Assembly: GCA_963779415.1 (NCBI GenBank)
Contig: CAVZYA010000002.1
Location: forward strand, 768,001 to 832,000
Length of the DNA: 64,000 bases
Source of the DNA: an uncultured Acidobacteriota bacterium
Lineage (GTDB): Bacteria > Acidobacteriota > Thermoanaerobaculia > UBA5066
Direction of reading: 5' to 3'
The notes under the pieces are model-generated. The model worked only from the letters and a program-made list of their open reading frames with translations, did not search any database and was not told the origin of the DNA. Positions within the stretch are counted from its first letter, which is position 1. The number at the start of each line of letters is the position of its first letter. Of the stretch, positions 7,958 through 35,060 are shown one piece after another. The position numbers were made by a program, and so were the translations under genes.

Positions 7958-8827
7958 TCAGGGGAGCGGGTAGATGCCGGGAGAGCCGTCCCCCGGGGTT
8001 CCGATCGTCCGGACGGGGGTCCGTTTCTCCCGGGCCCGCCGGATCGCCTCGGCGAGAGGCTCTTCCGGACCGCGGGTCGCTGCCCCGACGCGGAACGGCG
8101 GAAGCAGCTCTCGCGACGCCGCGAAGACGAGCCGCTCGAGGATCGTCCCGACGCCCTTCTCGTCGACGTCGCGAAGGAGGAGCAGGAACTCGTTCGAGTG
8201 CATCCGGACGACGGCGGTCTCGGCGCGCGACTGGCGCATCAGGAAGCGGGTGATCCGGTTGGCGACGGGGTCCGGCGTCCCGTCGTCCGGCACCGCCGAC
8301 GCACCGGAGCGGTCCAGCTCGACGACGACGCAGCCGCGGGGCTCGGCCGGCGGCTCGCTTCCCCGGGAGACCTGCGCGAGATAGCGCCGGTTGTAGCAAC
8401 CCGTGATCGGGTCGCGGAGCGCCTGCTCTTCGAGCGCCGTCTCCAGCTCCTTCCGCTCGGTCACGTCGGTGAGGACGCCGTGGTAGTAGACGTCCCCGGA
8501 TTCGGGGTCGACGCGGACCCACGCCGTGTCCAGAACGGTGCGGATCTCCCCGTCGCGGCGCCGGACCTTCAGCTCGAAATCGACGACGGACCCGAACTTG
8601 TCGAGAGCCTCTTTCCATCTCTCGCGCTGGAGCGGATCGACGAGGTAGTCACCGGCCTTCGCGGCGCGGAGGTCCTCCACGTTGCGCGCGCCGAGAATCG
8701 CCAGAAACGCGGGGTTCGCGTCGAGGATCTCGCCTGCCGGGGTCGAGATGTAGACCCCTTCCCGCATCCTCTCGAGGAGATGCCGGGCCGTGCCCGGCTC
8801 GTCGAGGTGCCGGAGTCCGTCGAGCAT
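7958..8827 (-). CDS. PAS plus degenerate GGDEF protein
   Basis: Paralogue of 3617-4474 ('EGVYISTPAGEILDANPAF', 'RDPITGCYNRRYL'); active site reads 'RMHSNEF'. Confidence 0.8.
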   Translation of the reverse strand: MLDGLRHLDEPGTARHLLERMREGVYISTPAGEILDANPAFLAILGARNVEDLRAAKAGDYLVDPLQRERWKEALDKFGSVVDFELKVRRRDGEIRTVLDTAWVRVDPESGDVYYHGVLTDVTERKELETALEEQALRDPITGCYNRRYLAQVSRGSEPPAEPRGCVVVELDRSGASAVPDDGTPDPVANRITRFLMRQSRAETAVVRMHSNEFLLLLRDVDEKGVGTILERLVFAASRELLPPFRVGAATRGPEEPLAEAIRRAREKRTPVRTIGTPGDGSPGIYPLP

Positions 8828-8898
8828 GGGACGCTCATGGTATCGCAGAGGCCCTGTCGGAGAGCGTCCCCGCCCGCTGATACGATGGCGATCCGCAC

Positions 8899-10036
8899 GT
8901 GAAGACGTCCCCCCCTCCACCCGCCGGACGCTTCGCGTCGCTCGACTTTTTCCGGGGAGTGACCGTCGCGGGGATGATCTTCGTCAACAACCCGGGAGAC
9001 TGGGGGCATCTCTATTGGCCGTTCGACCACGCGGAGTGGCACGGCTGGACCCCGACGGACCTCATCTTCCCGTTCTTCCTCTTCATCGTCGGGACGGCGG
9101 GGGTCTTCTCGATGTCGAAGCGGATGGAGCGCGGAGCCTCCCGGCCGACTCTCGCGCGGCATGCGTTTACGCGCGGCATGACGATCGTTCTGGTCGGCTG
9201 GGCGATGTCGTGGTTCCCCTTCACGCTCGAGCGCCTCTCGCGCCTCCGAATTCCGGGCGTCCTTCCCGCGCATCGGCGTCGTCTACGTTCTCGGAACGCT
9301 GATCGTTCTCGCCGTCTGGCGCCGCCGGGCGGCCGGCGTCGCCATCGCCGCCCTGCTCCTCGTCGCCCTGCACACCTGGCTCCTCGTCGGCCTCGGCTTC
9401 GACCTCACGCCCGGTGGAAACATCCAGCGGGCCGTCGACCTCGCCCTTCTCAAGGGGCATCTCTGGAAGAAGGAGTGGGACCCGGAAGGGATCGTCTCCA
9501 CCTTGACGGCGATCGCGACGATGCTCACCGGGACGCTCGCGGGCTTCGTCCTCGTGGGGAAGACGGGGGAGACGGCGTCCCGTTACCGGCGAGCGGCGGC
9601 GGCCCTCGCGCTTTGGGGCGCGGCCGGGATCGCCGCCGGGCTCGCCTGGAGCCGGTGGCTCCCGATCAACAAGAACCTCTGGACCGGCTCCTACGTCGTC
9701 TTCACCTCGGGTGCGGCGTGCGTGGCGCTCGCCGTCTCGATCGTCGTCGTCGACCTCAAGGGGTGGCTTTCTCCCCGCGGGATCTTCTTCACCTTCGGCC
9801 GGAACCCTCTCGTCGTCTTCGTCGGCTCGGGCCTCCTCGCGAAGAGCCTCGGCCTCGTGAAGCTGGCGGGGCCCGGCGGAAGGACGGTGAGCCTTCAACG
9901 GGTCCTTTACGACGGGGGCTTCTCCTGGATCGCGGATCCGACGCTCCGCTCCCATGCCTTCGCCGTCGTGACGATCCTCTTCTGGTGGGGGATCCTTCTC
10001 GTCTTCGAGCGGAAGGGGTGGTACTGGAAGGTCTGA
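8899..10036 (+). CDS. Heparan-alpha-glucosaminide N-acetyltransferase-like (NagX/DUF5009) membrane protein; frameshift near 9265
   Basis: 'SLDFFRG', 'VNNPG', 'HAEWHGWTPTDLIFPFFLF', 'WDPEG', 'PINKNLWT'. Confidence 0.85.
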
Positions 10037-10110: not shown

Positions 10111-10869
10111 GTGTCTGCCGCGGCTCTCGCCGCCGTCCTTTTGATGTCGGCCGGTGTCCGTGCGGCGCCCGGGCCGGGAGACGCGCCCCTCTCGGCGGTA
10201 GGAACTCTGGTCGTCGACCAGGAGGTCACCGTCACGACGCGCGTTTCCGGGGTCATCGATTCCCTGATGGCCGAACGGGGCGAGGTCGTCCGGAAGGACC
10301 AGCCGCTGGCGACGATCGACCAGCGGGAGTTCCGGCTCGACCTCCGGGCCGCCCAGGAGACGCTGAACGTCTCCCGGGCCGATCTCAAGAGAGCCGAAGA
10401 GCTGTTCCGGCTCAGTCTGTGCAGCCAGGCCGAGCTGGAGCAGAAGCGGGCGCACCACGAGCTGGCGCAGGTGGAGTTCGAGCGCGCTCAGCTCGTCATC
10501 GATCGCTCGGTCGTTCGCGCACCCTTCGACGGCATCGTCGCGGACCGGTACGCGCACGTCGGCGAAAAGGTCCTCCTGGAGGAGAACAAGCCGCTCTTCA
10601 AGGTCGTCGCTCTCGAGCCGCTCCTCGCGCGCGCCTACCTCCCCGGCACCGCGCTGACCCGGGTGAAGCCGGGGCAGGAGGTGGCCGTCGCCGCGCACGA
10701 CCTGCCGAACGTCCGGTCCACCGGGCGCATCGCCTTCGTCAGCCCCGTCCTCGACCCGGGAAGCGGTTCCGTTCAGGTCGTCGTCAACGTCAAGCGCGAT
10801 ACGGGAAAGCTGCTCCGCCCCGGAATGGCCGTCCAGCTCCTCTTCGTGGGGGCCGCGGCCGCGCCCTGA
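10111..10869 (+). CDS. Membrane-fusion protein (RND/HlyD periplasmic adaptor)
   Basis: Signal peptide; 'RVSGVI...GEVVRKDQPLA', alpha-hairpin, 'VRAPFDGIV', 'LLRPGM'. Confidence 0.85.
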   Translation: MSAAALAAVLLMSAGVRAAPGPGDAPLSAVGTLVVDQEVTVTTRVSGVIDSLMAERGEVVRKDQPLATIDQREFRLDLRAAQETLNVSRADLKRAEELFRLSLCSQAELEQKRAHHELAQVEFERAQLVIDRSVVRAPFDGIVADRYAHVGEKVLLEENKPLFKVVALEPLLARAYLPGTALTRVKPGQEVAVAAHDLPNVRSTGRIAFVSPVLDPGSGSVQVVVNVKRDTGKLLRPGMAVQLLFVGAAAAP

Positions 10870-10881
10870 GGCTTAAGGTCA

Positions 10882-11559
10882 ATGGCACCGCGCCGGCGCA
10901 TCCCCCTCCGAACGGCGGCAGATTCGGTCCTGCTGCACGACATGCGGAACATGGGGCAACGACTTCACCTCCTGCTGTCGAATCTGGACGAGCATTACGG
11001 AGACCCGGAGTTCAAGAGGAGCGTCGCCGTCCTGCTCCGGAGCACGGTGGAGAAGCTCGACGCGATGGCCACGCAGTGGGCGGCCCGCCGCGGCGGTGTC
11101 CTGATCAAGGTTCCGCTCGACCTGAACGATCTCCTCGGCGAGCTGCTCGCGTCGGCCGGGACGATGGGCGGAGATGCCCGCGTCACGGCCGAGTACGGTG
11201 AGCTGCCGCGCGTCTGGGGAGATCCCTATCTTCTCAGGGAGGCTTTCGGGAACGTCCTCGAGAACGCGCTCGAAGCGGCGTCGTCGTCCGTCCGGGTCCG
11301 GACGAAAGTCGAAACGCACGGCCGGCGCCGCCGGGCCGTTCTGGAGATCGAGGACGACGGGCCCGGAATGTCAGCGGACTTCCTCGCGAACCGAATCTTC
11401 CAGCCCTTCCAGACGACGAAGCCGGACGGCGTCGGGCTCGGTCTCTACTCCGCTCGTCAGATCGTCGGCCTTCACCGCGGGACGATCGACGTCCGGAGCG
11501 CGCCGGGAGCGGGGACGACGCTGCGGATCGCCCTCCCCGCGGCGGGCGAGGACCGCTGA
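10882..11559 (+). CDS. Stand-alone PrsK-like histidine kinase (HisKA + HATPase, no sensor domain)
   Basis: H-box 'LHDMRN...LLLSN...DPEF' resembles PrsK; N-box 'NVLENALEA', 'DDGPGM', 'FQPFQTTK', 'GLGL'. Only about 20 aa precede the H-box. Confidence 0.85.
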   Translation: MAPRRRIPLRTAADSVLLHDMRNMGQRLHLLLSNLDEHYGDPEFKRSVAVLLRSTVEKLDAMATQWAARRGGVLIKVPLDLNDLLGELLASAGTMGGDARVTAEYGELPRVWGDPYLLREAFGNVLENALEAASSSVRVRTKVETHGRRRRAVLEIEDDGPGMSADFLANRIFQPFQTTKPDGVGLGLYSARQIVGLHRGTIDVRSAPGAGTTLRIALPAAGEDR

Positions 11560-11561
11560 GC

Positions 11562-12965
<1,404 letters not shown>

Positions 12966-13060
12966 AAGATCGACCGGCAGGGTTCTTCCCGGCTCCGACC
13001 CCTCGCAACAGGAGGAGACGATTTTCGGGGGTTTCTTGCGATCTGCGGCCGGCCGGACGC

Positions 13061-13077
13061 TTGGCCCCCCGATTGCA
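13061..13077 (+). promoter_or_regulatory. Sigma-54 (-24/-12) promoter
   Basis: TTGGCCCCCCGATTGCA: GG at 13063-64 and GC at 13075-76 with canonical 12-bp spacing. Confidence 0.8.
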
Positions 13078-13122
13078 GATGAAAGGGCGGCGTACAGCCA
13101 AGAGAAAGTCAGGAGGACGGAG

Positions 13123-13554
13123 ATGTCAAACGAAGTGAAGATCAAATTGACAGACGAGCAGAAGGCCAAAATCAAGAAGGGGACGGGTCAGGAGCTATCC
13201 GAGATCCGGGTGAGCGCCGTAGGTGCGCAGGCGGCTCCGCGTGGCGCAGCGGCTCCGCGTGGCGCAGCGGCTCCGCGTGGCGCAGCGGCTCCCCGTGGCG
13301 CAGCGGCTCCCCGTGGCGCAGCGGCTCCGCGTGGCGCGGCGGCTCCGCGTGGCGCGGCGGCTCCGCGTGGCGCAGCGGCTCCGCGTGGCGCGGCGGCTCC
13401 GCGTGGCGCGGCGGCTCCGCGTGGCGCAGCGGCTCCGCGTGGCGCGGCGGCCCCGCGTGGCGCGGCGGCTCCGCGTGGCGCAGCGGCTCCGCGTGGCGCG
13501 GCGGCTCCGCGTGGCGCGGCGGCTCCGCGTGGCGGAGGACTTCCGAGCGTCTAG
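13123..13554 (+). CDS. 143-aa precursor-like peptide: ~35-aa charged leader, 17 tandem (A/Q)AAPRG units, GGLPSV tail
   Basis: AGGAGG RBS at 13111-13116, ATG 13123, TAG 13552-54; repeat variation is synonymous in this frame; flanked by promoter and terminator. Confidence 0.85.
   Translation: MSNEVKIKLTDEQKAKIKKGTGQELSEIRVSAVGAQAAPRGAAAPRGAAAPRGAAAPRGAAAPRGAAAPRGAAAPRGAAAPRGAAAPRGAAAPRGAAAPRGAAAPRGAAAPRGAAAPRGAAAPRGAAAPRGAAAPRGGGLPSV
13228..13533 (+). repeat. Coding tandem repeat, 17 x 18 bp (GCR GCG GCT CCG CGT GGC)
   Basis: Directly visible; no spacers; units 2-17 differ only at wobble positions. Confidence 0.95.
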
Positions 13555-13582
13555 CACGTCGGGTCGAAAGAGCCGTGACCCG

Positions 13583-13615
13583 AAGCGCCCCGGCTTCCCG
13601 GGGCGCTTTATTCTT
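13583..13615 (+). terminator. Intrinsic terminator between convergent genes
   Basis: AAGCGCCCCGG-CTTC-CCGGGGCGCTT perfect 11-bp stem followed by TATTCTT. Confidence 0.8.
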
Positions 13616-13619
13616 GGAA

Positions 13620-15812
13620 CTACCAGAAAGTCGACCGCAGCCAACGGTAAAGGATACGGCCTGCCTCAGCCAGGAGCGACGTCCGCGGCCCGCGGATCTT
13701 GGCGAAGCCGGACATTCCCGGTCGGAGGGTCCCGTCCGGGTTCTCGAACAGGGCTCGCACGACAATCTGGTCGGGCATCTCGGGCGGTCGAAGGGCTTCG
13801 GTAGCCTCGCCTCTCTCGTTATTGCGGGTGGCTGGGGCGATCGAGACGATGGTCCCGCGCACGGCGCGGAAGGGGCGGGCTGCGAGGTGAAGGGAAACGG
13901 TCTCGCCGACGCCGAGGTCGTACAGGAGACGCTCCGAGACCGGAAACGTGGCCGCGAGACGTGTCGTCTCGCCGACGGTGACGAGGGAAGTCCCGGCGGC
14001 GAGCCAGCGCCCTCGAAGGTCGTCCGGACGCGCCGTGAGAAGCCGGCCCTCGAACGGGCTCGTCACCTCGAGCGAGGCGGTTCGTGCGGCGTCGCTGGAA
14101 AGGCCCGCCTCGGCGGCTCTCTCGTGTTTTTCCGCGAGGAAAGCCTCGCCGGCCGCTCCCGCGCTGCGGCTCCGGCCGGCGTTGCCGGTCGCACCGGCAA
14201 GCCGTGCCTCGTCCGTCCGCCGCGACGTCTCGACGGCCGGACTTCCGAGCCGCAGGATCGGCTGCCCCGCGCGGAGGAGGTCGCCCTCGTGCGCGAGGAC
14301 CTCACGGACGATGCCGACCTCGGGGGCCTGGAGTCGCGCCGAGCGGGCGGGCTCGAGGACGGCATCCATCCGGATCGTCCGGGGGTACCACGGCAGGACA
14401 AGAAGAAGGACAGCCGCACCGGCGGCGGCGAGAAGAGGCGCGCGGGCTCGCGGCGACATCAGGAACTCCTTCTTGTCGAGATAGAAGAGGCGTGAAATTC
14501 GGACGAGGAGCCTGACCCTGCTTCGGAAGAAGAGGTACAGCGTGAGGAGGAGCAGGACTATCGCGAAATCCGGAACGAAGCTTGAGTAGAAGCTGTCGAG
14601 AAGCCTCGTGATGAACAGCATGATCAGGCCGAGGTAGCCGACTGCCAGCGTCCCGTAGACGGCGAAGATCCACTTCTTCCGCCGCGACACGACGGGGACC
14701 TCGACATTCAACCTCAGGATGTGTTTCTGGAAGAGCGAACCGAGGTACTTGAAGGAGTCTCCGCGGAGCTCCGGGATCTCGATGATGCTGGAGAGCGCGT
14801 AATACCCGTCCAGTTTTGTGAGCGGGTTGATGTTGAAAAAGACCGTCGAGATTCCCGTGAAGAGCATCGTCTTGTATGCCAGCGCATGGGCGAAGGAATC
14901 GGGGTATGTCGCGACCCAGAGCACAGTCGCAATCGTGCAGATGATCCCTTCGATGTAGATCCCGGCGATCGTCACCCAGAAACGTTGCCACTTGTTCGTG
15001 AACAGAAACGAGTCGGTCGTGTCGCAGTAGAAGGCGGGAGTGAAGTAGAGGAGAGCGATTCCCATGTCGTGGACGTCCCCCCCGTACATCTTTGTCGTAT
15101 ACCCATGGGCAAATTCGTGAAAGAAGCAGATCGTGGTCAGAATCACCCAGAACTGGATGAAGTCCCAGAACGGCTTCTGCCAGAACGTATAGAGATCGAG
15201 AGTCTGCGCCCAGATCGTGTCGAAACGGGTGGCGAAGACGCCGATCGTGAAGAGAAAGCAAACGCACGTGATGGTGACCGTCGTCGGCCGCCAGAGCCAC
15301 CGGACGTACCGGACTGTGCGCGTCAGGATGCGGTCCGGGTCGAAGACCTTAAAGAGCATGAAGAGGACATTGAAGCCCTCCGACTTCTCCTTGGCTGTCC
15401 GGTGCCTGAGCGACGCGAACTTCGAGAGGAGCTGGAGATTCCTCTCGGCCGCCGACTGCTCGAGTGCCTCGATGCCGCGGAGCATCTCCTCGTAGTCGAG
15501 GACCAAGGACAGGTCGACGGCGCTCCCTCCCAGCCGCCGGCTGTACTCCTCGCGAATCTCGATCGGCGTCCGCGTCCCGTCGAAAAGCTCGATAAGACCC
15601 CACGACCCGTCGTCAAAGGCGTAGACCTTGTTCGTTTCGGGGACTTTGACGACATACGAGACCTCGCCCATCTGGACCTGCCTCCGGATGACGAGGCTCT
15701 TCTTCAGTGCGGGCTTCTCCAGCCGCGTGCCGTGGCGGGCGGCGAGCGCTTCGGCGCTCTTCCCGGCGAGGGCCGCCGAGACGAGGCCGCCCGGCGCGAC
15801 GGCGGCGCTCAC
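13620..15812 (-). CDS. RRE/PqqD-like + M50 intramembrane metalloprotease + HlyD-type membrane-fusion domain fusion
   Basis: N-terminal 'SYVVKVPETNKVYAF...LFDGTRT..EI'; HExxH (HEFAH) and 'NINPLTKLDGYY'; C-terminal 'EVTSPFEG', 'NPDGTLRPGMSG'. Confidence 0.85.
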   Translation of the reverse strand: MSAAVAPGGLVSAALAGKSAEALAARHGTRLEKPALKKSLVIRRQVQMGEVSYVVKVPETNKVYAFDDGSWGLIELFDGTRTPIEIREEYSRRLGGSAVDLSLVLDYEEMLRGIEALEQSAAERNLQLLSKFASLRHRTAKEKSEGFNVLFMLFKVFDPDRILTRTVRYVRWLWRPTTVTITCVCFLFTIGVFATRFDTIWAQTLDLYTFWQKPFWDFIQFWVILTTICFFHEFAHGYTTKMYGGDVHDMGIALLYFTPAFYCDTTDSFLFTNKWQRFWVTIAGIYIEGIICTIATVLWVATYPDSFAHALAYKTMLFTGISTVFFNINPLTKLDGYYALSSIIEIPELRGDSFKYLGSLFQKHILRLNVEVPVVSRRKKWIFAVYGTLAVGYLGLIMLFITRLLDSFYSSFVPDFAIVLLLLTLYLFFRSRVRLLVRISRLFYLDKKEFLMSPRARAPLLAAAGAAVLLLVLPWYPRTIRMDAVLEPARSARLQAPEVGIVREVLAHEGDLLRAGQPILRLGSPAVETSRRTDEARLAGATGNAGRSRSAGAAGEAFLAEKHERAAEAGLSSDAARTASLEVTSPFEGRLLTARPDDLRGRWLAAGTSLVTVGETTRLAATFPVSERLLYDLGVGETVSLHLAARPFRAVRGTIVSIAPATRNNERGEATEALRPPEMPDQIVVRALFENPDGTLRPGMSGFAKIRGPRTSLLAEAGRILYRWLRSTFW

Positions 15813-18229
15813 GGCAGGAGGGGCCAGAGCTTCGTGGCGGCCCAGCGCGCCGGCCGGCGGAAGAGCGCCACGAGGAGCGGGCGGCGGCCGGTCGAGATCT
15901 TCCCCGTCCCGAGCATGCCCGGCTTGAGAAGACCGGAGGGGTTCTCGACCCGCGTCTCGGCGATTAGGAACCTCTCCTCTCCCTCCTCGCGTACGGCGGC
16001 GCCGAGCCGTGACACGCGCCCCCGGAACGTCCGCGTCGGGTAGGCGTTCATCTTCAGCGTGACATCCTGCCCGTCGGCGAGGAGGGTGGCGTCGCGCTCC
16101 GGGATCGCCACTTCCGCGAGGAGGGACGAGGTCTCGGCGAGGACGGCGAATTCCGCGCCGGCGGCGAGAAGCTGGCCGACCCGCTCGTCGAGGCGGGGAG
16201 TGATGACGATGCCGGCCTCCGGCGCGCGGAGCCGCGTGGCGGCCAGGCGCTCCTCGGCCCAGGTGGCGCGCGCGCGCGCCTCGCCGCGCCGGGAGAGAGC
16301 CTGCCCCATCGCGGCGGCGTTCCCCTCGGCCCGATGGCGCGCCACCTCGGCCTCGGCGATCTGCTCGGCGGCGCGGGCCTCGGCGAGGGCGGCCCGGTAG
16401 GCGTCGTCCTTGAGCGTCGCGATGACGTCACCCGCCGCCACGACGTCTCCCTCGCGATGCTCCACGGTGGCCACGATCCCGTCGACATAGGCAGTCACCG
16501 GAATCCGCCGCCCCGGAACGGCGCGGGCGGGGCCGGTGACGCGGATGTTCCAGGGCACGAGGACGAGGAGGAGCAGGGCCGCGGCGGCTCCCAGAAGCCA
16601 GCGCCGCCACCGGCTTGCCGGAAGGGCCGACAGCTTTCGCGTTCGCTCCGCGAGGGGCTTCAGGAAGCCGGGAAGCGGCATCTGCTGGTAGAGCTGGGCG
16701 TTCCTGACGGCGACTGTGGCCTGGTTGACGAGGATCTGAAGAAGATCGCGTGTCCCCGCGTCGAACTCGAGGGGCTCGTTACATTCGAACCCGAGGACTC
16801 CGAGCTTCCCTTCCTCGTCCTCGAGCAGAACGCCGTAGAAGGCGTTCCGGCCCGTCGCCTCGAAGAAGGCCCGGAACTTCTCCTCGGTCTCGGGCCGGTC
16901 CGTCTCGATCGTCCCGTCCTCCAGTCGCGTGACGGCTACGTTCTTACCGCCCCAGAAGACCCACTCCAGGAGTTCCTCTGTCCGGCGGACGGACGGGTCC
17001 TTCCGGTCCAGCTCCGCCACCCCGGAAACAGCCCCTATCCGGAGCTGTCCGCGCGAGAGGATCGCGATGGCGGCCCGGTCGTACGTCACGAGCGCGGAGC
17101 TGGCGTTCACGATGGTCCGCATCACCTTGTCGAGGTCGAGGGTGGAGGTGATCTCCCGGCTGACGGCGAGGAGGGCATCCAGCTCCTCGACCTTCTTCTC
17201 GGCCTCGTACTGGCGCGCGTTGTGGAGCGCCCGGACGGCCTGCCTCTCGATGTCGGCGAGAAGCTCCTCGTCGGCCGCGGTGAACTCGGGGTGCCGGCCG
17301 CGCTTGTTGACGACGACGATCACGCCGATCGGCGCGTCGTCCTCGAGGAGCGGCGCGGCGAGGAAGGAGTGGACCGGGTAGTCCGGGTTCTCGCCCCGCA
17401 CCGGGTCGTCCTCGGAAAGATCGTGCCGGCGCACAGTCGCGCTCTCGGCGAGGATGTCACCGACGATGGAGCCTCCAACGGCATCGGGCGGCGCGGGAAT
17501 GTCGTAGTTCGTGTTGACGGCCGTGGCCGCCAGCGTCACCTCGCCGGCCTGCCGGTCGAGTGTCCAGAATGACGCGACCTCGGCGCCCATGAAGTCGACG
17601 GCCTTACGGGCGATGATGGCCGAAAGCTCGGCGAGGTCGATCGTGGAGCCGAACGCCTTCGTCAGGTCGAAGAGGCTCGTCAGACGCTCGATGGCGTAGA
17701 GCATGCCGCCCGTCTTCCGCTCGGCGCGGAGAGCGCGGGCGAGGGCGGGCGTGGCGTGCTTGAGAAACCCCTGCACGTTCTGGAGGACGCTCCGGTCGGG
17801 CATCCGGTGGAAGGCGAGGGCGAGGATGCCGACGACGATCCGTTCGGCCGAAAGCGGCACGAAGAGGCACGCGACCGCCGGCGCCGGGATCGCCTTCAGG
17901 AAGGGGTCGTCAGCCGCGGCCAGCTGGTCGGCTTGGAGAAGAAGCGGGGTCCGGTCGCGGACGAGATCGTGTACGAGCCCGGTCTCCCGCGGGACGGAAC
18001 GCCTGACAACGCGTTCCGTGCCGGTGCCGTAGGCCGCGATGCAGAGGAAGGTGGGGTGGAGTGCGTCCGGGGCCCAGAGAAGGGCCGCGTCCGCGCCGGC
18101 CAGTTCCGCGCTCCACCGGGCCGCCCATCCCGAAGTCTGCGCGAGGCTCTCGCAGAGGGCCAGCTCCGCCAGCGCCCTGATCTCGGCGCTTTCCGGCGGC
18201 GACCCTCCGCGGCTCGGATCCTCTGGCAT
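15809..18229 (-). CDS. Multi-GAF-domain protein fused to HlyD-type membrane-fusion domain
   Basis: Three GAF-like repeats ('FLAAPL...IGVIVVVNK..FTAADEELL...ALHNARQY'), single TM, 'LRAPEAG', 'NPSGLLKPGMLG'; GTGA overlap with the M50 gene. Confidence 0.85.
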   Translation of the reverse strand: MPEDPSRGGSPPESAEIRALAELALCESLAQTSGWAARWSAELAGADAALLWAPDALHPTFLCIAAYGTGTERVVRRSVPRETGLVHDLVRDRTPLLLQADQLAAADDPFLKAIPAPAVACLFVPLSAERIVVGILALAFHRMPDRSVLQNVQGFLKHATPALARALRAERKTGGMLYAIERLTSLFDLTKAFGSTIDLAELSAIIARKAVDFMGAEVASFWTLDRQAGEVTLAATAVNTNYDIPAPPDAVGGSIVGDILAESATVRRHDLSEDDPVRGENPDYPVHSFLAAPLLEDDAPIGVIVVVNKRGRHPEFTAADEELLADIERQAVRALHNARQYEAEKKVEELDALLAVSREITSTLDLDKVMRTIVNASSALVTYDRAAIAILSRGQLRIGAVSGVAELDRKDPSVRRTEELLEWVFWGGKNVAVTRLEDGTIETDRPETEEKFRAFFEATGRNAFYGVLLEDEEGKLGVLGFECNEPLEFDAGTRDLLQILVNQATVAVRNAQLYQQMPLPGFLKPLAERTRKLSALPASRWRRWLLGAAAALLLLVLVPWNIRVTGPARAVPGRRIPVTAYVDGIVATVEHREGDVVAAGDVIATLKDDAYRAALAEARAAEQIAEAEVARHRAEGNAAAMGQALSRRGEARARATWAEERLAATRLRAPEAGIVITPRLDERVGQLLAAGAEFAVLAETSSLLAEVAIPERDATLLADGQDVTLKMNAYPTRTFRGRVSRLGAAVREEGEERFLIAETRVENPSGLLKPGMLGTGKISTGRRPLLVALFRRPARWAATKLWPLLP

Positions 18230-18253
18230 GTGGGACTCTTCGCGCCTCCCGGC

Positions 18254-18589
18254 TCAGAAGCTGGAGACGGCCTGTTCGCGGTCGTCGTACGTCTCGAAAA
18301 CGGAGTCGAGACGGGTCAACTCGAGGAGCCGCCGGAGCTGCGGCCCCACGGCGACGAGTTTCGTCTGACCGCCGCCGCTCTGCGATTCCGTCAGGGCGCG
18401 GACGAGAGCGCCGAGGCCGGTGGAATCGACCGAACGCAGGGCGCTGCAGTCGACGAGGATGTCCACCTTCCCTGTCTCGAGCAGGCGGAGGATCTCCCGC
18501 TTGAAGGCCGTTTCGGAATCTCCGATGACGAGATCGCCGGAGATCGAAACGACCGTTACGCGACCGTCTTCCTCGATCGAAAGCTGCAT
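18254..18589 (-). CDS. STAS-domain anti-sigma factor antagonist
   Basis: 'VDSTGLGALV', 'LLELTRLDSVF'; 111 aa. Confidence 0.9.
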   Translation of the reverse strand: MQLSIEEDGRVTVVSISGDLVIGDSETAFKREILRLLETGKVDILVDCSALRSVDSTGLGALVRALTESQSGGGQTKLVAVGPQLRRLLELTRLDSVFETYDDREQAVSSF

Positions 18590-18634: not shown

Positions 18635-19549
18635 CTAGAGGGCGAGGAGGCGGTGGGGGACCCCGCCGGCGCACCGAAGGGCGGTCTCCCGGGAAATCCC
18701 GGAGGAGGCGAGGCGGTCGACGCACTGGTCCAGCGTGGCGGCGCTCCCGGCGAGGTTTCCCGAGGCGTTCCGGACGGCGCCGTCCCGGAGCGTCAGCGTC
18801 TCGCCCCAGACGGGATACGCCCCGTCGGGGAGCCCGGCGGCCGGGACGGCATCACTGATGAGAACGACCCGGTCAGGGCCCTTCACCTTGAAGACGAGCC
18901 GGAGCATGTCGGCGGAAAGGTGGTGGAGGTCGGCGATGACATCGACCGTGACCGCGTCGTTCGCCAGTCCCCAGCCGATCGGCCCGACGTCCCGGTGGTG
19001 GAGCGGCTTCATGGCGTTCCCGAAATGGGTCATGTGCCGTGCCCCGGCTTCGACGGCGCGGTCGAGGGTCCGCGCGTCGGCTTCCGTATGGCCGATCGCG
19101 ACGAGAAAGCCGCGCCGCGAGAACTCCCGGACGAGGTCGACCCCCCCCGGGATCTCGGGGGCGAGCGTCACGACGGGGCGGCCGGGAAACCACGCGATGG
19201 CGTCGAAGAAGACGCCGACGGCGCGGTCGTCCTTCCCGTCGAGGAGATTGGTCGGGTGGAGCGCGCCGGTGCGGGCAGGCGAGACGAAGGGCCCCTCGAA
19301 GTGGATCCCGAGCGGGATCGCCCCCCGGCCGTCTCCCTCCCGGCGGCTTCTCATCCAGGCCGCGAGGCGGGCGACGAGAGGCTTCAGGTCGGCGAGAGGC
19401 ACCGGGACGAGCGTCGGAACGAAGCCCGCGACGCCGCGCGAGGCGAGCCCCTTTGCCAGGAAGTCAAGCCCTTCGGAGTCTGCCGAAAGGACGTCGATTC
19501 CGAACGCCCCGTGGATGTGGATGTCGACGAGGCCGGAAGGCTCCTTCAC
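18635..19549 (-). CDS. nagA: N-acetylglucosamine-6-phosphate deacetylase (short form)
   Basis: 'VDIHIHG', 'GIHFEGPF', 'TLAPE', 'GHT', 'THFGNAM', 'ISDA', 'LAGS'. Confidence 0.88.
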   Translation of the reverse strand: MKEPSGLVDIHIHGAFGIDVLSADSEGLDFLAKGLASRGVAGFVPTLVPVPLADLKPLVARLAAWMRSRREGDGRGAIPLGIHFEGPFVSPARTGALHPTNLLDGKDDRAVGVFFDAIAWFPGRPVVTLAPEIPGGVDLVREFSRRGFLVAIGHTEADARTLDRAVEAGARHMTHFGNAMKPLHHRDVGPIGWGLANDAVTVDVIADLHHLSADMLRLVFKVKGPDRVVLISDAVPAAGLPDGAYPVWGETLTLRDGAVRNASGNLAGSAATLDQCVDRLASSGISRETALRCAGGVPHRLLAL

Positions 19550-20404
19550 GATCCGCCCTGCTCTGGAGGCGAACTGAGCGCGAGGGTGATGTTGTTTTTC
19601 TTCTTAGAAAGAAAGAGACGGGCGGCCTCGCAGTCGAGCCCCCACTTCGCGGCGACGAGGGCGGTCGGGAGATTCCATTCACTCTTTCTAAGCAAATCCT
19701 CGGCGTTCTCTTTGGACGTTTCGGCCAGCTCCGAGACGATTCGGATCGCGCGCTTTTTGAGCTTCTCGTTCGTCGGTTTCATGGCGACCATCTCGTCGCG
19801 CCAGACGAGGCCCCTCTTCGCCATGACGGCCGTCGAGAGCATGTTCAGGACGAGCTTCTGCGCCGTCCCGGCCCGCATCCGGGAGGACTCCTTCAGGACT
19901 TCCTCTCCGACGTCGACGAGGATCGGAAATTCCGCCTCCCGAAAGAAGCGGCGTCGCCGGCCGGCAGACGAGTGCCGCCGTCAGCGCCCCCATCTCCCGC
20001 GCGTGGCGGATCGCCCCGCGGACGTACGGCGTGGCGCCGCTCGCGGCGATCCCGACGACGGCGTCGCGCCCCGTCATCCCGGCGGCCTCGAGGTCGCGCG
20101 CGCCCGTGTCGGCGTCGTCCTCGGCCCCTTCGACCGCCTGGAAGAACGCCTCGCGTCCCCCCGCCATCAGGGCGACGACGAGCGACGGGTCCGTTCCGAA
20201 GGTGGGGGGGATCTCCGCGGCGTCGAGGGCGCCCAGCCGCCCGCTCGTCCCGGCCCCGACGTAAAACCAGCGTCCCCCCGCCTCGAGCCGCGCCGCGATC
20301 GCGTCGGCGGCGCGGGCGATCGAGGGAATCGCCGTGGCCACGCGCTCGGGAACGTCACGGTCCGCTTCGGAAAGGCGGCGAAGAAGCGCGAGCGTTTCGC
20401 TCAT
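19546..20404 (-). CDS. murQ: N-acetylmuramic acid 6-phosphate etherase; frameshifted near 19880-19970
   Basis: '[21 protein letters not shown]', 'EGAEDD', '[11 protein letters not shown]', '[16 protein letters not shown]'; ATGA overlap with the upstream kinase. Confidence 0.88.
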
Positions 20405-21342
20405 CGTGGGGTCCCGGTCCTGGCGAGGGCGAGGCGGACCGCGCCGATCTCGGGTGGGTAGGCGGGGGGGTGGAGGCGGGCCTCCGGGGCGACCGTACGG
20501 ATCCGCGCCTCGAGCGGCTCGAGGATCAGGTCGCCCGCGCTGAAGACGCCGCCGACCGTCGCGATGCCGAACCTCTCCCGCTCGAGCTTCAACTTCTTCA
20601 CGAGCGTGAGGACAGCGAGGGCCAGCTCCTCGACGGCCTCGCCGAGAATCCGGAGAGCCTCGCCGTCCCCTTCGCGCGCCGCCTTGAGGACGATCGGAAA
20701 GTACGCGGCCACGTCGGCGGGCGCGCCGTCCGTCCGGTAGATCCGCTGGAGCAGCTCGTCCGAGGTCTTCATCCCCTCGGAGGCGAAGAGAAAGTCGCGG
20801 ATCCGCGTCCGCGGCCCGCGCCCGTCGAGGTCGCGGACCACCGCGGAGAGCCCCTGCCGGGCGATGAAGTAACCCGACCCTTCGTCTCCGAGGACGGGGC
20901 CCCAACCCCCCGTCCGCCCTTCGGTCCCGTCCACGCCGCGGCCGAAGACGATGGCCCCCGTTCCGGCGATCAGGACGAGGCCGGGGCCGTCCACCGGTCC
21001 TTCGAGGGCGCCCGCGAGGGCGATCCGGGCGTCGTGCGTCACGAAGACCTTTCCCTGGCCGTAGTGCTCCTCGAGCGCGGACGTCAACCGGGGGCCGATC
21101 CCCGCAGCTTCGACCCCCGCGAGGCCGCATGCCACGGCTGCCGCCGCCGAGGGATCGACCCGCGCATGCTGGGCCGCGTCGCTGACGGCGTCCGTCACCG
21201 CCTGTACGACGCGCGGAAGAGCGCGCGTCGCCGCGTTCGCCGGCCCGCCCGATCCCCGTCCGAGGACGGCGAGCGTCGCATCCGCCACGACGGCGCGGGT
21301 GTGCGTCCCCCCTCCGTCCACGCCGATGAAAAAGGGAGCCAT
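20401..21342 (-). CDS. BadF-family N-acetylglucosamine/MurNAc kinase
   Basis: '[10 protein letters not shown]', 'HDARIAL', 'IAGTG', '[13 protein letters not shown]'. Confidence 0.85.
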
Positions 21343-23452: not shown

Positions 23453-26241
23453 TCAGAAGTCGAGCTCGTGCCGTGAGCACCAGCCGCCGCGGTGAGGCCC
23501 AGCTCGTGGCATTTCCGTAGTTCGGGTTCGGCTGGGAGGTCCCCTGCGGTGTCGAGAACCGAATACGGGGTGCCGTTCACGTACGGGTCGTGGTACTTGA
23601 CGCCGTCGACGTTTAGAACGGTCTGCGTGTTGAAGAGGTTGTAGACGCGCGCCTCGAGCCGGAGGTTCGTGGCGCCGCCGAGCTTGAAGGTGTACGCCCC
23701 GAGCAGGTCGAAGGTCGTCCAGGTCGGGAGCCGCTGCGATCCGGCCGGCTCGAGGTAGCGCTGGTAGCCGCTATTGGAGTTCGTGTCCGCGCCGAGTGCC
23801 TGCCACGGAGTGCCGCTCTGGACGGTGAGGAAGCCGCCGAGGGTGACGCCGAACGGGAAGTCGTAGCTCCCGATCAGCTTGAAGATGACCGGGCGGTCCT
23901 GTGCAAGGCGGCCGTACCGGTACGGCTCGCTTGTGTAACCGCCGGGACCGTCGTTCGAGGTAGTCGAGGTGTTGAACGTGCCGGCCCGTAGTCGTCGTCG
24001 AAGTTGCCGTAGAGCTTGCTGAAGGTGATGTTCGCGTCGGCGTACCAGCCGTTCGAGTAGCGCTTCTGGACGTCGAGCGTGATGGCGCGGTAGACGCGCC
24101 GCGCGTCGGGGAAGTTCGCCGCCTGGAAGAGGCTTCCGGAGTTGTCCGGGTTGATCGGCGTGTCCTCGAAGGGGTTCTTCAGGTTCCGGTACTGGTAGTA
24201 GGCGTCGAAGCTGACGTCCTTGGTCACCGCCGCGGAGTAGCCGAGGACCCACTCCTGGTAGTAGGGCGGCTTCAGGTCGGGCGGGATGTACTTCCCGGCC
24301 GAGGAGGCGCGGATCTGCGTCCCCTGATAGACGCCGGTCGTCGGGTCGAAGAAGGCGTAGCTCTGGGAGATCCGGTACGGGGCGAAGGAGCGCGCCGTCG
24401 ACTTCTGGTCGAGGTTGGCGTACTCGCCGTAGCTCGAGTAGAACTTGTCGCTCGAGAGCAGGTTCGGGTTCCAGGTGATGCCGAGTCGCGGCTGGATCTC
24501 CTGGCTCCAGTTGAACGTCATGAAGTTGTAGCGCGTCTCGGTCTGGGGAGTCGTCGTGCCGCAGACGATGCCCGGCTTGCAGACCTGGGCGAAGTCGTCC
24601 TTGTTGGCGAGGACGCCGAGGTAGACCGTGACGTTCTTCCAGGTGACCGTGTCCTGGAGGAAGGCCGAGTAGGTCCGCGCCTTGGCGTACTGCTCCGGCT
24701 GGGTCGGGTAGTAGCGGGCGCGGATGCTGGCCCGGTCTTCGAGGTGCCGCAGACGGGGCCGGGCAGGTCGAGCCGGTGTTCAGGAGGGCCCAGCCGTTCG
24801 ACTGCCGGAAGACGTCGTCGTCGGTGTCCTCGTACCCGCCGCCCAGCTTGAACTGGTTCTGCGTCGGCCCGAGGTCGAGGAACTGGCTGATCGTCGCCTT
24901 GACCTCGTTCCGCGTGTACTTGTCGCCCGTAGTCGACGAACTGGTAGACGCCGGCGTTTCCCGGTCTGCCGGGCCGGGTCGTCGTACTCGCCGTATGCGC
25001 CGAGGTTGTGCGGGTCGATCGTCGTCGGCATGCTGCTGAGGACGTTCTGCGCCCTGCGTGAGGTCGTTTTCCTTGTAGTAGACGTACTTCGCCTCGACGA
25101 CCGTGTCCTTGGAGGCGAACCAGTCGGCCGTCGCGTTTCCGATGTAGTTCGTGGTGTCGGACCCGTACGCGGCCGTTGGGGCGATCGTAGATCGAGGCGA
25201 ACTGGTCAGTCGACTTGCTCGGCAGCGCCCGGAAGCCGGCGTTGACGAGGACGTCCTGGCCGGCGAAAGGCCGTCAGCTTCCCGAAGTAGTCGCCGTCGT
25301 GTCGTCTTCGAGTCGGGCTGCGTCGTCGTGACGCCGCGAACTGGCTCGTCTGGCCCAGCGTCTGTCGTGTCGTAGTAGGCCGCAGAGGCGTACCCGAAGA
25401 GGACGTCCTTCACGATCGGGAACCCGATGTTCGCCTGGCCGTTGTAGGTGCTCTCTTCCTGAGGTCGTCGTCGAAGTCCTTGTTGGCCTGGAAGGAGCTG
25501 GGGGAGAGGTTGAACTGGACGGTCCCGGCGACCTCGTTCGTCCCCGATTTCGTGACGGCGTTGAACATGGCGCCCGCCCGTCCGGCCGAACTCGGCCGAG
25601 ATGCCGGCCTTCTTGACGTTGAAGTCGGCGATGTCGAGCTGGTTCGTGTTGCTCCCGAGATTGCCGTAGCCCGGGTTCGTGATGTTGACGCCGTCGAGGA
25701 GGAACTTGTTGTCCTGCCGCGTCGCCGCCCGAGATGGCGACGTCGCCGATTGCCGCTCGTGTCGTTGGCGACGCCCGGCGACCATCTTGATGAGCCCCTG
25801 GTACGTTCGTTGCCGAGCGGGGAGGTCCTTGATGACCTTCTCGCCGTAGTTGAAGTTGACCTCGGAGGCCTTCTTGTCGATCTCGGACATGGCGCCGGTC
25901 ACGACGATCTCCGTCTTCGTCGTCTGGATCAGGACGAGCGTGAGCTGGGCGTCATTGTCGACCGTGACGAGAACCTTCTGGCTCGCCGTCCCGAGGCCCT
26001 TCAGATCGGCCGTGACAACATAGTTTCCCGGCAGAAGGATCGGGAACTTGAACCCGCCCCCCGCGCCCGTGACGGTGTTGCGAGGCGCCTGAGAGCCGGT
26101 GACCGTCACCGTGGCGCCGGGAACCGGGGCCCCGGTGCCGTCTTTGACGACGCCGGAGATCGACCCGGTCTCGGTCGCGAAGGCGGTCGTGGCGGTCACG
26201 ACGAACGCCACCGCGACCAGAATCCTGAGAACGTTTTTCAT
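23453..26241 (-). CDS. Oar-type TonB-dependent receptor with carboxypeptidase regulatory-like domain; many frameshifts
   Basis: Signal peptide, 'GSISGVVKDGTGAPVPGATVTV', 'AEFGR', 'QPRLG', 'YNLFNTQ', C-terminal 'PRRL...F'; GGAGG RBS. Confidence 0.8.
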
Positions 26242-26503
26242 CAAGCCTCCTCCTCCATTTTGAGAGAGATTTTCAGGATGTTGAGATACCTGCAGCGATG
26301 TTCCGGCATTCGGATCTCCGTCGGGAGATCCAGAATTTTGAAGGTTCGTCCCGACGGTCGAGCGATATTCGAGAGACTTACGTCACAGACACCCATGAAA
26401 GACAACAACGCGAAGGATAAATCGCAAGCTCCCTGCCAGTCGAAGAAGATGTTCATTTACCGGGAGAGAATGCCGGCGCGGCCCGGGGATCCGGGCCGTC
26501 TCC

Positions 26504-33880: not shown

Positions 33881-35060
33881 TCATAGCTTCCCCATGAAGG
33901 CCTTATCGAGGATTGCCGGCAAGAGGGCATCGAGCTTGGCGGCGGTCCTCCCCTGCGGGGCCTTCAAGGCATCGACTTTGGCCTGAAGGCCGTCGAGGTA
34001 GGCGACGATGTGGCGCTGCTCAGCGAGCGGTGGGACATGGACGCCACATCCCCGTAACTTCACCCCGGTCAGGTGAGCGATGGTTGTCTGCGTCTTGAGT
34101 TCGGAGAACCCTGTCTGCTCGGCTGCCCAGAAAATCTGGTGCAGGAGGAACCGTGGCGTGACTCTGCTGGGGTCCACCCGAACCCGGTGCAATGCCTTCT
34201 GAAAGCAACAGCCGGCAATCTCGTTGTTCCAGATGGTAGACTTTCCGATGTCGCCGCCTTCGCACACGAGGATATCGCCGGGAAGAAGTTGAAACTCCCG
34301 TTTCTCGTTTTCGTCAAAATCCATTTCAAATACGGAGGACAGGTCGAGACGGTCCCACTGAATGTTCGCATTACGCAGGTACGGTGTGCTGTGCCGACCC
34401 GTCTTGGCGGCGCTGGAGAGCATTTTTCAAGGCGACATTCAGCTACCGAGTCGAGTCTAACGGTGGGATGGTCTGTGAGAAGCCCGGAAAACAACGTGTC
34501 CCGTTCCTGAACGCAAATAAGTTCTGCCATGCGGTTAGCCTCTTGTCTGAGGCCGACTGCATCCTTCAAGCCAGCAGAAAGTTCCTCGATCCGCGCACGA
34601 TCCGCCGCTGCTCGGCGAGGGGCGGGACGGGGACCCGCGCAGCGAGCAAAGTCTTGGGGCGCACGGCGGCGTAGCCGGTTGTGCCGAATGCTCCGCTGGC
34701 CAGTTGCGCCTCCAAGTAGTTCGCCTGGAAAATCGCCTGCAGCCACGCATTCAGGACGAGGTCGTGATTTACGTCAAACAGGAAGAAGTGGCTGGTACAG
34801 AGTGCACCAGTTCCATCCGGCGGTACGAAGCCGATGGCACCCTTCTTACCCCAGATTTCCGACAGGATCACCTGCCCAGACTTGGCGAGCTGGTGCTGCT
34901 TCATCTTCAGGGTAGAGCCGTCAACTGGGGTGTCCAGAACGACGCCTCTGCCGTACAGCCGCACCGAGAGTTTGGAGTAGGGGCGCGCCTCTGGCCTTTC
35001 GATGAACTCGGTGTTCTGCACAAGAAGCTCGCCGAGGGGAACGAGCGGCCAGCCGTTCAA
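33881..35060 (-). CDS. hsdS: Type I R-M specificity subunit; frameshifted
   Basis: Two TRDs, each ending 'PPLAEQR.IV'; C-terminal 'LLPAILDKAFMGKL'. Confidence 0.88.

Follow-up and report, generated by a model that had tools for sequence, protein, structure and literature searches.

How might a bacterium cut a small peptide from its leader and pass it through the cell envelope when the genes that accompany the peptide include no pump? This question is raised by a locus of seven genes in a 64,000-nucleotide stretch of DNA (the window) from an uncultured Acidobacteriota bacterium of the class Thermoanaerobaculia (contig CAVZYA010000002.1, positions 768,001 to 832,000). The source genome is a 4.36 Mb assembly of 3 contigs that is 92% complete. 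Pfam and NCBIfam searches recover seven open reading frames (ORFs) with clear domain content between positions 10111 and 18589, just where a prediction made from the letters alone (the original prediction) had placed them. The plus strand carries, in this order, an HlyD-type adaptor, a histidine kinase, a sigma-54 activator, a -24/-12 element and a small peptide gene. Facing them on the minus strand are a STAS gene, a gene for a GAF-HlyD protein and a gene for a fusion of an RRE (the recognition element of RiPPs, peptides that are made by ribosomes and modified after translation), an M50 protease and an HlyD part. Both the regulatory arm, in which the adaptor, a kinase without sensor and the activator precede a sigma-54 promoter and the peptide gene, and the convergent STAS/GAF-HlyD/RRE-M50-HlyD operon are confirmed. 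We consider the module an uncharacterised variant of leader-guided peptide processing and export; in Acidobacteriota, the seven-gene set probably trims and exports a peptide by an unstudied route.

The part of this answer that can be given with most confidence is the pairing of peptide and protease. The leader peptide is probably the substrate of the RRE-M50-HlyD protease, because it strictly co-occurs with the only RRE-carrying protein of the module. The pairing is further supported by the fusion of the RRE to an intact intramembrane protease and by the closest characterised relative of that protein, which is a leader peptidase. Among 201 genomes sampled from the class, the protease is matched at E ≤ 1e-10 in 46 and by a strong orthologue (E ≤ 1e-110, near full length) in 41. 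A second HlyD match, corresponding to the GAF-HlyD gene, lies directly upstream of the M50-HlyD gene in every one of these 41 genomes. A profile of the N-terminal head of the peptide finds matches in exactly the 41 genomes with a protease orthologue and in none of the 160 others; without two genomes flagged as unpublished (G004 and G104), the count is 39 of 199. The peptide gene thus accompanies the M50-HlyD and GAF-HlyD genes in other genomes, the outcome on which the original prediction had staked its claim. Nearly all carriers belong to three families, with 9 of 18, 26 of 27 and 4 of 4 genomes, respectively.

The linkage extends to position and gene order. With the first 40 residues of the peptide as a tblastn query, 27 of 30 further loci (26 of 29 without one locus from G004) show the conserved head convergent to the protease gene and directly downstream of it. 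The three loci that lack the head are contig ends, and the head profile finds it on other contigs of the same genomes. The order adaptor-kinase-activator-peptide against M50-HlyD-GAF-HlyD-STAS is kept in 21 loci (20-kb fetches) from three families. Some kinase and activator matches in this comparison are fragmented, and in one locus (L037) the GAF-HlyD match falls under the 50%-coverage filter, the 2.4-kb space being present and the HlyD part being matched in the class-wide search. Genes outside the adaptor and the STAS gene are common only to the window's own family. As these flanks change while the seven genes remain syntenic, the seven genes form the unit. Outside the class, 10 more genomes in a 401-genome phylum sample match the head more weakly. 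All five loci inspected from other classes show the same activator gene before an ORF of head plus repeat and an HlyD-type gene convergent downstream, and in three of these 3-kb loci the downstream match extends into the M50 core. The nearest named record is a metagenome-assembled genome of Thermoanaerobaculia (Acidobacteriota), whose protease is 77% identical.

The peptide gene is easily overlooked. In fragmented assemblies (G009, G116, G060, G139, G156, G196), the contig often ends at or beside it while the head lies on another small contig, which suggests that short-read assemblies break at the repeat array and that gene catalogues contain the gene less often than they should. A word-indexed protein search with the head returns 4 unnamed proteins; the gene is rarely called. 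In the window, its ATG follows a Shine-Dalgarno sequence (aggagga) at 6 nt. The 143 amino acids consist of a 38-residue head and a final stretch of 105 residues with 17 AAPRGA units, encoded by a tandem array with a period of 18 nt, 17.2 copies and 95% matches. The window's own genome has a single head copy by profile search. Across genomes, the 38 head residues align with a mean column identity of 77% and the consensus MANEVRIKLTDEQKAKIKEATGK...EIRV.SLG.NPA. An NCBIfam search with 28 heads at E ≤ 10 yields only a chance match to vnfK, and the whole peptide finds only collagen-like low-complexity matches below cut-off in Pfam and NCBIfam. Two peptide genes lie next to each other in some genomes (e.g., L015:298-411 and 1061-1174), and two to three head matches each occur in G040, G060, G076, G104, G168, G176, G196 and G200. 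In two loci (L031:3923-4021 and L032:3931-4029), the second ORF has a shorter and more divergent head, no ATG at the aligned start and an acidic unit of its own.

The tails are short tandem repeats everywhere, with periods from 3 to 24 residues and a unit that varies by genome (AAPRGA, PTAKVALRK, RAAGKSIAG, AMRAAK, KAT, GLREE, LSGKS, AQDLS and others). The units are unrelated already between genomes with proteases that are 77-78% identical. Pooled tails are rich in Ala (27%), Ser (12%), Arg (12%) and Lys (9%), contain no Cys, Trp or Tyr, and have almost no His or Phe. To follow the units at codon level, each codon was compared with the codon one period later in 28 peptide genes, leaving out the G004 locus and the two second ORFs with weak heads. 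In frame, single-base differences between units are synonymous in 604 cases and non-synonymous in 173; the corresponding ratios in the other two frames are 106:676 and 52:712. The window's array alone gives 11:1 in frame against 1:13 and 1:12, and the arrays of L016 and L018 reach 40:1 and 36:2. As the synonymous excess exists in the reading frame only, the tail is translated, and by this codon comparison selection keeps the protein sequence constant from unit to unit of an array even as the codons drift. A role of the tails as histone-like DNA binders or general cationic antimicrobials was considered and dropped, since several lineages have acidic units (EEGLR, SAQDL).

Constant units under drifting codons also fit a second explanation of the tail. 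It may be a multi-copy precursor, comparable to yeast alpha-factor or to fungal multi-core RiPP precursors, which the M50 protease or others acting after it would cut at each unit into many identical peptides of 3-24 residues that serve as species-specific signals or antagonists. The lack of relation between units at 77-78% protease identity suits fast-diverging signal or recognition peptides, and repeat-bearing RiPP precursors reportedly exist in bacteria (PMC9062424, PMC12957482, PMC6511847). However, no conserved cleavage motif marks the unit borders, and units run from KAT to 24-mers and from basic to acidic, so that a single conserved protease is unlikely to cut them all. Units of the SAQDL type lack any basic residue, and the module offers no receptor-type sensor, its kinase being devoid of a sensor domain. 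We regard this explanation as rather unlikely on its own, but such processing can also be a later step of the trimming and export proposed here.

What, then, would recognise the head? The N-terminus of the protease had been predicted to be an RRE/PqqD-like domain, and by fold it is an RRE. The AlphaFold2 models (mean predicted local distance difference test, pLDDT, of 73.6 for the full protein and 69.9 for residues 1-215) show three strands followed by three helices (E41-47, E50-57, E62-67, H68-74, H83-93, H101-113). Aligned with VIA-align, residues 30-119 score Z 11.1 against 6jx3_B, 10.8 against 5v1u_A, 10.0 against the TigE RRE (8vpo_A) and 8.7 against PqqD (5sxy); for the two leader-bound lasso B1 proteins (6jx3_B and 5v1u_A), 82-84 residues align at a root-mean-square deviation of 2.4 Å. 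In a Foldseek search with the model of residues 1-215, TbiB1 chains and PqqD fill the first six ranks (best E 2.1e-3, probability 1.00, TM-score 0.70 on the target), and the lower rows include CteB, ThcOx, TruD/LynD, lasso B1 (6jx3), TigE and PbtF, interleaved with unrelated entries. Co-modelling of residues 30-140 with the 38-residue head from alignments gave a score of 0.01 (mark 0.32), which weighs neither way.

Behind the RRE follows a Peptidase_M50 core (PF02163, 34.2 bits against a cut-off of 27.2) with about seven hydrophobic helices. Residues H232, E233 and H236 of the HEFAH motif (232-236) and N327/N329, P330, D335 and G336 are invariant in 22 orthologues (HExxH and NxxPxxxxDG), and judged by these motifs the active site is intact. 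Given the seven helices, the RRE would lie on the cytoplasmic side and the HlyD part on the periplasmic side. The HlyD part (residues 476-730) has an alpha-hairpin in the model (H525-551/H554-580), and the structural relatives of residues 484-711 are MacA, MexA, AcrA, EmrA and HlyD. The stop codon of the GAF-HlyD gene overlaps the start of the M50-HlyD gene (GTGA), which makes translational coupling of the two plausible. The wider protease family is large, with 11546 representatives at E ≤ 1e-3 and 2186 at E ≤ 1e-30, many of them 690-720 amino acids long and similar end to end at 25-35% identity. Ten distant RRE-M50-HlyD representatives carry generic names only ('putative peptide zinc metalloprotease', 'HlyD family efflux transporter periplasmic adaptor subunit'). 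One distant paralogue of 767 amino acids from another genome of the class (L054:5781-8084, minus strand; PqqD...HlyD) matches protease residues 149-548 at 28% identity and adjoins a 553-residue TPR protein (8090-9751, minus strand) instead of a GAF-HlyD gene, and weak M50-like matches in open frames of about 750-810 amino acids occur in G064, G156, G167 and G170; the family is thus heterogeneous in its context.

Three known systems help to place this protein. Its best NCBIfam match is the daptide protease (daptide_HExxH, NF041824; E 3.6e-46), which covers residues 60-429 on profile positions 25-366 of 379 and therefore includes the domain before HExxH. The daptide protein MpaP/DapP is described as an 'RRE-dependent intramembrane peptidase', with an RRE fused N-terminally to an intramembrane site-2 protease (bioRxiv 10.1101/2023.03.08.531785). 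It shares with our protein the N-terminal RRE, the M50 intramembrane protease and a small leader-bearing peptide encoded nearby, as far as that description extends. Our protein differs by its additional C-terminal HlyD adaptor and scores 158 bits where the family cut-off is 300. The daptide tailoring genes (oxidative decarboxylase, aminotransferase, methyltransferase) are absent from the conserved block and its flanks, the daptide leader motif as reported (ELExMEAP) is unrelated to the head, and in place of the invariant C-terminal Thr of daptides the peptide ends in ...GGLPSV. Similarly, the M50 protease EpeP of the epipeptide pathway is thought to both cleave and export its peptide, according to a review (PMC10885120). 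EpeP/YydH from Bacillus resembles our protein as a membrane M50 protease, and it matures a small peptide as our protein would, but it has no HlyD part, the epipeptide radical-SAM epimerase and ABC transporter are not present here, and the YydH/LiaK profile (NF058609) is only a weak second match (E 2e-10, 40.8 bits against a cut-off of 225). A third comparison concerns the colicin V system CvaAB-TolC, in which a peptidase-containing ABC transporter and an HlyD-family adaptor export bacteriocins with a double-glycine leader. The shared logic, as proposed for our module, is an N-terminal leader recognised and removed by a protease that belongs to the envelope-spanning exporter, and the use of an HlyD-type adaptor. 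In colicin V-type exporters, however, a C39 protease is fused to the ABC pump, whereas here an M50 protease is fused to an adaptor, without ATPase or double-glycine motif.

Expression of the peptide appears to be under dedicated control. The sequence holds a -24/-12 element, an adjacent activator gene and, in the genome, rpoN (one gene above cut-off), by which a sigma-54 promoter is recognised. In the window, TGGCAC-N5-TTGC with one mismatch occurs 4 times against 1.4 expected, a number reached by 8 of 100 shuffles, so the single match TGGCCCCCCGATTGC is not significant alone. The other one-mismatch matches lie at 25799-25813 (plus), 26424-26438 (minus) and 34835-34849 (plus). Conservation speaks for the site that had been predicted: an element of the TGGC-N8-TTGC type stands 41-80 nt before the ATG of the peptide gene in 22 of 22 loci, and the activator gene lies upstream in 21 of 21. 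About 100-120 bp upstream of the -24 element, GGTTGA/TCAACC half-sites recur at a spacing of some 10-11 bp, in the window overlapping the stop codon of the activator gene. Of 22 loci, 19 have at least two half-sites within -170 to -60, while L039 and L045 have one each and L050 has none, against an average of 0.10-0.24 per locus in composition shuffles. We infer that this cluster is the candidate binding site of the activator. A search of sequencing runs lists no RNA run with this sequence and only six DNA runs, which contain small shares (0.05-0.12) of the sampled words and bear on neither expression nor habitat.

The kinase comprises an H-box and HATPase_c only; it has no sensor domain, and a hydrophobicity scan finds no hydrophobic or transmembrane segment. 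PrsK (TIGR02916) is the closest named relative of its catalytic half, and PrsR (TIGR02915) is the second-best match of the activator, marginally behind AtoC (NF008469, E 7.5e-122). The predicted PrsK/PrsR-like character of the pair stands as a resemblance, but neither protein reaches the NCBIfam cut-off: the kinase scores 136.7 bits against 300 (E 1e-39, profile positions 482-679 only) and the activator 403.9 against 502.6 (E 8.5e-121), with AtoC likewise below cut-off. Both pairs drive sigma-54 promoters of genes for small secreted proteins, which for the pair described here presupposes that the tail is indeed exported. The whole membrane sensor part of PrsK is absent, and the target peptide carries no PEP-CTERM signal. 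The genome's sole exosortase (EpsH)-like match is on another contig (G000 contig C3:360010-360435, L081), unlinked to the locus.

The remaining components are those of an envelope machine. HlyD_D23/HlyD_3 domains occur in all three adaptor-type proteins. The 806-residue protein combines three cytoplasmic GAF stretches, one transmembrane segment (544-562) and a periplasmic HlyD adaptor, and the short adaptor of 252 residues, encoded by the first gene of the regulatory operon, has a hydrophobic segment at residues 1-19 that is an N-terminal signal or anchor. The STAS gene comes first in the machine operon; like the short adaptor gene, it is syntenic in 21 of 21 loci. Its product contains a D-S-T-G-L-G stretch at what we take to be the site phosphorylated in anti-sigma-factor antagonists. 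An RsbW-type kinase and a PP2C phosphatase are both absent from the conserved block.

Taken together, these parts suggest a self-contained switch, processor and exporter, a model that as a whole we hold to be somewhat better than an even bet. The sensor-less kinase would phosphorylate the sigma-54 activator, which would bind the GGTTGA/TCAACC sites at the 3' end of its own gene and fire the -24/-12 promoter. The product would be one small cytoplasmic protein with the conserved 38-residue leader head and a tail of identical repeats. The leader would serve as an address tag, bound by the cytoplasmic RRE of the RRE-M50-HlyD protein, and the intramembrane zinc protease would cut it off at the membrane. 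The repeat tail might then leave, to act outside the cell, through an oligomeric periplasmic assembly of the HlyD parts of the protease, the GAF-HlyD protein and the short adaptor, an assembly that may dock to a TolC-type protein with its gene in another place, with the GAF domains and the STAS protein gating the machine from the cytoplasm.

Several observations weigh against this model, mostly against its export step. Neither the spaces between the seven genes nor their immediate neighbourhood in the window hold an ABC, RND or MFS transporter, and no such gene is conserved across the 21 loci, though a partner may be encoded elsewhere in the genome. The original prediction had noted the lack of an ABC or RND pump, TolC, exosortase or tailoring enzyme, and a domain search of the block and its flanks agrees: the conserved block contains none of these (nor any other outer-membrane factor), and the flanks contain no pump, outer-membrane factor or peptide-tailoring enzyme. 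The genome, at 92% completeness, has only one SecA_DEAD gene (E 4.5e-126), located on contig C1. With no pump in the module and a single SecA_DEAD gene, the module has no energy source. No outer-membrane factor is linked to the locus either; 31 OEP-domain (TolC-type) matches lie elsewhere in the genome. Where no pump is present, HlyD-type domains could act as sensors or scaffolds instead of in transport. The tails, ranging from basic (AAPRGA, KAT) to acidic (EEGLR, SAQDL), suggest no obvious common extracellular activity. Pfam PqqD (PF05402) does not match the window's protease at E ≤ 10, although it matches 8 of 22 orthologue N-termini (best E 1.9e-4). Finally, the module is missing from 9 of the 18 sampled genomes of the same family, and hence dispensable. 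Export through the three adaptor domains is therefore plausible at about even chances, the missing energy source and outer-membrane partner being its main weaknesses.

An ATPase is precisely what distinguishes the nearest described gene set. Kamneva, Poudel and Ward (2015) reported genes for GAF(+HlyD), Peptidase_M50(+HlyD) and HlyD/biotin-lipoyl proteins conserved beside a secondary SecA_DEAD protein in Planctomycetes, Verrucomicrobia, Proteobacteria and others, such as Methylobacterium extorquens (META1p2402-2399). In the passages on this module, which is known from genome comparison alone, they proposed a type-I-like secretion device with SecA_DEAD as the ATPase and the M50 protein as the membrane pore (PMC4452313). 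Their module and ours have in common the GAF-HlyD and M50-HlyD proteins, an HlyD-only adaptor, the absence of an ABC transporter and, usually, of a linked outer-membrane factor, insofar as those passages describe it. The second SecA_DEAD ATPase, however, is lacking in the Acidobacteriota locus, a further point against the proposed export, and the HlyD-only gene sits here in the facing regulatory operon. The same passages name no cargo, RRE or sigma-54 circuit (PMC4452313). A literature search, with subscription journals and supplements outside its scope, found the machine genes covered by that paper only and no paper on a leader-plus-repeat peptide with an M50-HlyD protein or under sigma-54 control. 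The claim of a new system consequently holds for the peptide cargo, the RRE link and the sigma-54 circuit, which are in no paper found, but not for the GAF-HlyD/M50-HlyD/HlyD set, which was already described in 2015 in the part of that work cited above.

The lack of a pump or ATPase also lends some weight to an explanation without export. Here, the peptide would be a cytoplasmic regulator or decoy, which the RRE-M50 protein destroys in response to envelope or cytoplasmic signals received through HlyD, GAF and STAS, with feedback on the kinase. M50 proteases are classically signalling proteases (e.g., the site-2 proteases RseP and SpoIVFB), signalling parts are plentiful in the module (three GAF domains, STAS, kinase and activator), and the module contains no other source for the input that its kinase requires. 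However, a substrate that stays wholly in the cytoplasm hardly accounts for three separate periplasmic adaptor domains with alpha-hairpins, and selection for identical units is not expected of a mere degradation tag. Moreover, where the role of an RRE-M50 relative is known, it matures a peptide that leaves the cell, as far as the available descriptions go. We consider such regulatory proteolysis unlikely.

A conventional RiPP pathway, in which enzymes from other loci of the genome chemically modify the tail ahead of leader removal by the M50 protease, is more improbable still. Its appeal is that RRE domains and leader peptides are typical marks of RiPP pathways and that repeat precursors are reported for radical-SAM RiPPs. 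Against this, a block conserved in three families comes without a tailoring enzyme and with flanks that are not conserved, the sole RRE sits on the protease, and the composition of the tails (without Cys, Trp and Tyr, with almost no His or Phe) rules out most of the cross-linking chemistries that are known. That the peptide ORF is a chance open frame over a GC-rich DNA repeat, as a window of about 70% G+C with many long spurious ORFs on both strands and a lone -24/-12 match without significance might suggest, is refuted by the conservation of the head at protein level in 41 genomes and by the synonymous excess in this frame only, the gene also having a Shine-Dalgarno sequence and ATG and an array that is always in frame; we give it practically no credence.

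The coordinates of all features are collected in Table 1. The hairpin between the convergent genes folds with a minimum free energy of -34.3 kcal/mol (z -3.2), which none of 200 shuffles equals; a simple terminator scan does not list it, though folding shows it. The flanking genes concern amino-sugar recycling and encode a PAS/GGDEF-like protein, an HGSNAT-like membrane protein and a spermidine-synthase-like protein. Among the flanking genes, a MurQ/GKRP-like gene (19546-20500, minus strand) appears split over two overlapping frames, with the SIS domain in ORF 19688-21130 and the C-terminal lid domain in the frame of ORF 19546-19878, which is either an assembly frameshift or a pseudogene.

Table 1. 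Features of the seven-gene module and its control elements, in window positions.
Feature	Position	Strand	Evidence and details
HlyD/RND_mfp adaptor, 252 aa	10111-10869	+	TIGR01730 E 2e-45; HlyD_D23 E 3.5e-23
Sensor-less histidine kinase, 225 aa	10882-11559	+	H-box HDMRN; HATPase_c E 6e-23
Sigma-54-dependent response regulator (REC-AAA+-HTH_8), 467 aa	11562-12965	+	Sigma54_activat E 6.8e-68
Candidate activator-binding site (upstream activating sequence)	12941-12975		GGTTGA / TCAACC / AGTTGA half-sites
Sigma-54 -24/-12 element TGGCCCCCCGATTGC	13062-13076	+	One mismatch vs TGGCAC-N5-TTGC
Peptide gene, 143 aa	13123-13554	+	Head 13123-13236; tandem array 13225-13534; end GGLPSV
GC-rich 10-bp hairpin followed by UUUAUUCUU, terminator-like	13584-13616	+	Between the convergent genes; folding
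RRE-M50-HlyD fusion, 730 aa	13620-15812	-	RRE 15456-15725; HEFAH 15105-15119; Pfam, NCBIfam, models
3xGAF-transmembrane-HlyD protein, 806 aa	15809-18229	-	Domain and hydrophobicity searches
STAS / anti-sigma-factor-antagonist-like protein, 111 aa	18254-18589	-	STAS E 1.5e-19; TIGR00377 67.4 bits, cut-off 53.45

If the model of leader-guided trimming and export is true, peptides would be transferred across a Gram-negative-type envelope by a protease-coupled route without a pump, and a gene set known since 2015 without a cargo, the relatives of its core protein forming 2186 representative clusters at E ≤ 1e-30, would receive its first one. A bolder possibility, which we put forward tentatively and hold to be doubtful, is that this is a secretion route across the whole envelope, not recognised before, in which a fusion of leader-binding intramembrane protease and adaptor replaces the ABC transporter without a dedicated ATPase. 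Its cargo would be a new class of ribosomal products, unmodified tandem-repeat peptides with a unit that is identical within a genome and replaced between species, acting outside the cell as species-specific signals or recognition polymers. As the parts are few and small, heterologous reconstitution would be feasible. The cargo is unusual in any case, with a fixed head of 38 residues and a tail that is uniform within a genome and unrecognisable between genomes whose machine proteins are about 78% identical. This pattern raises the question of what selects repeats that are uniform but replaceable, be it signalling, kin recognition, a regular polymer or antagonism.

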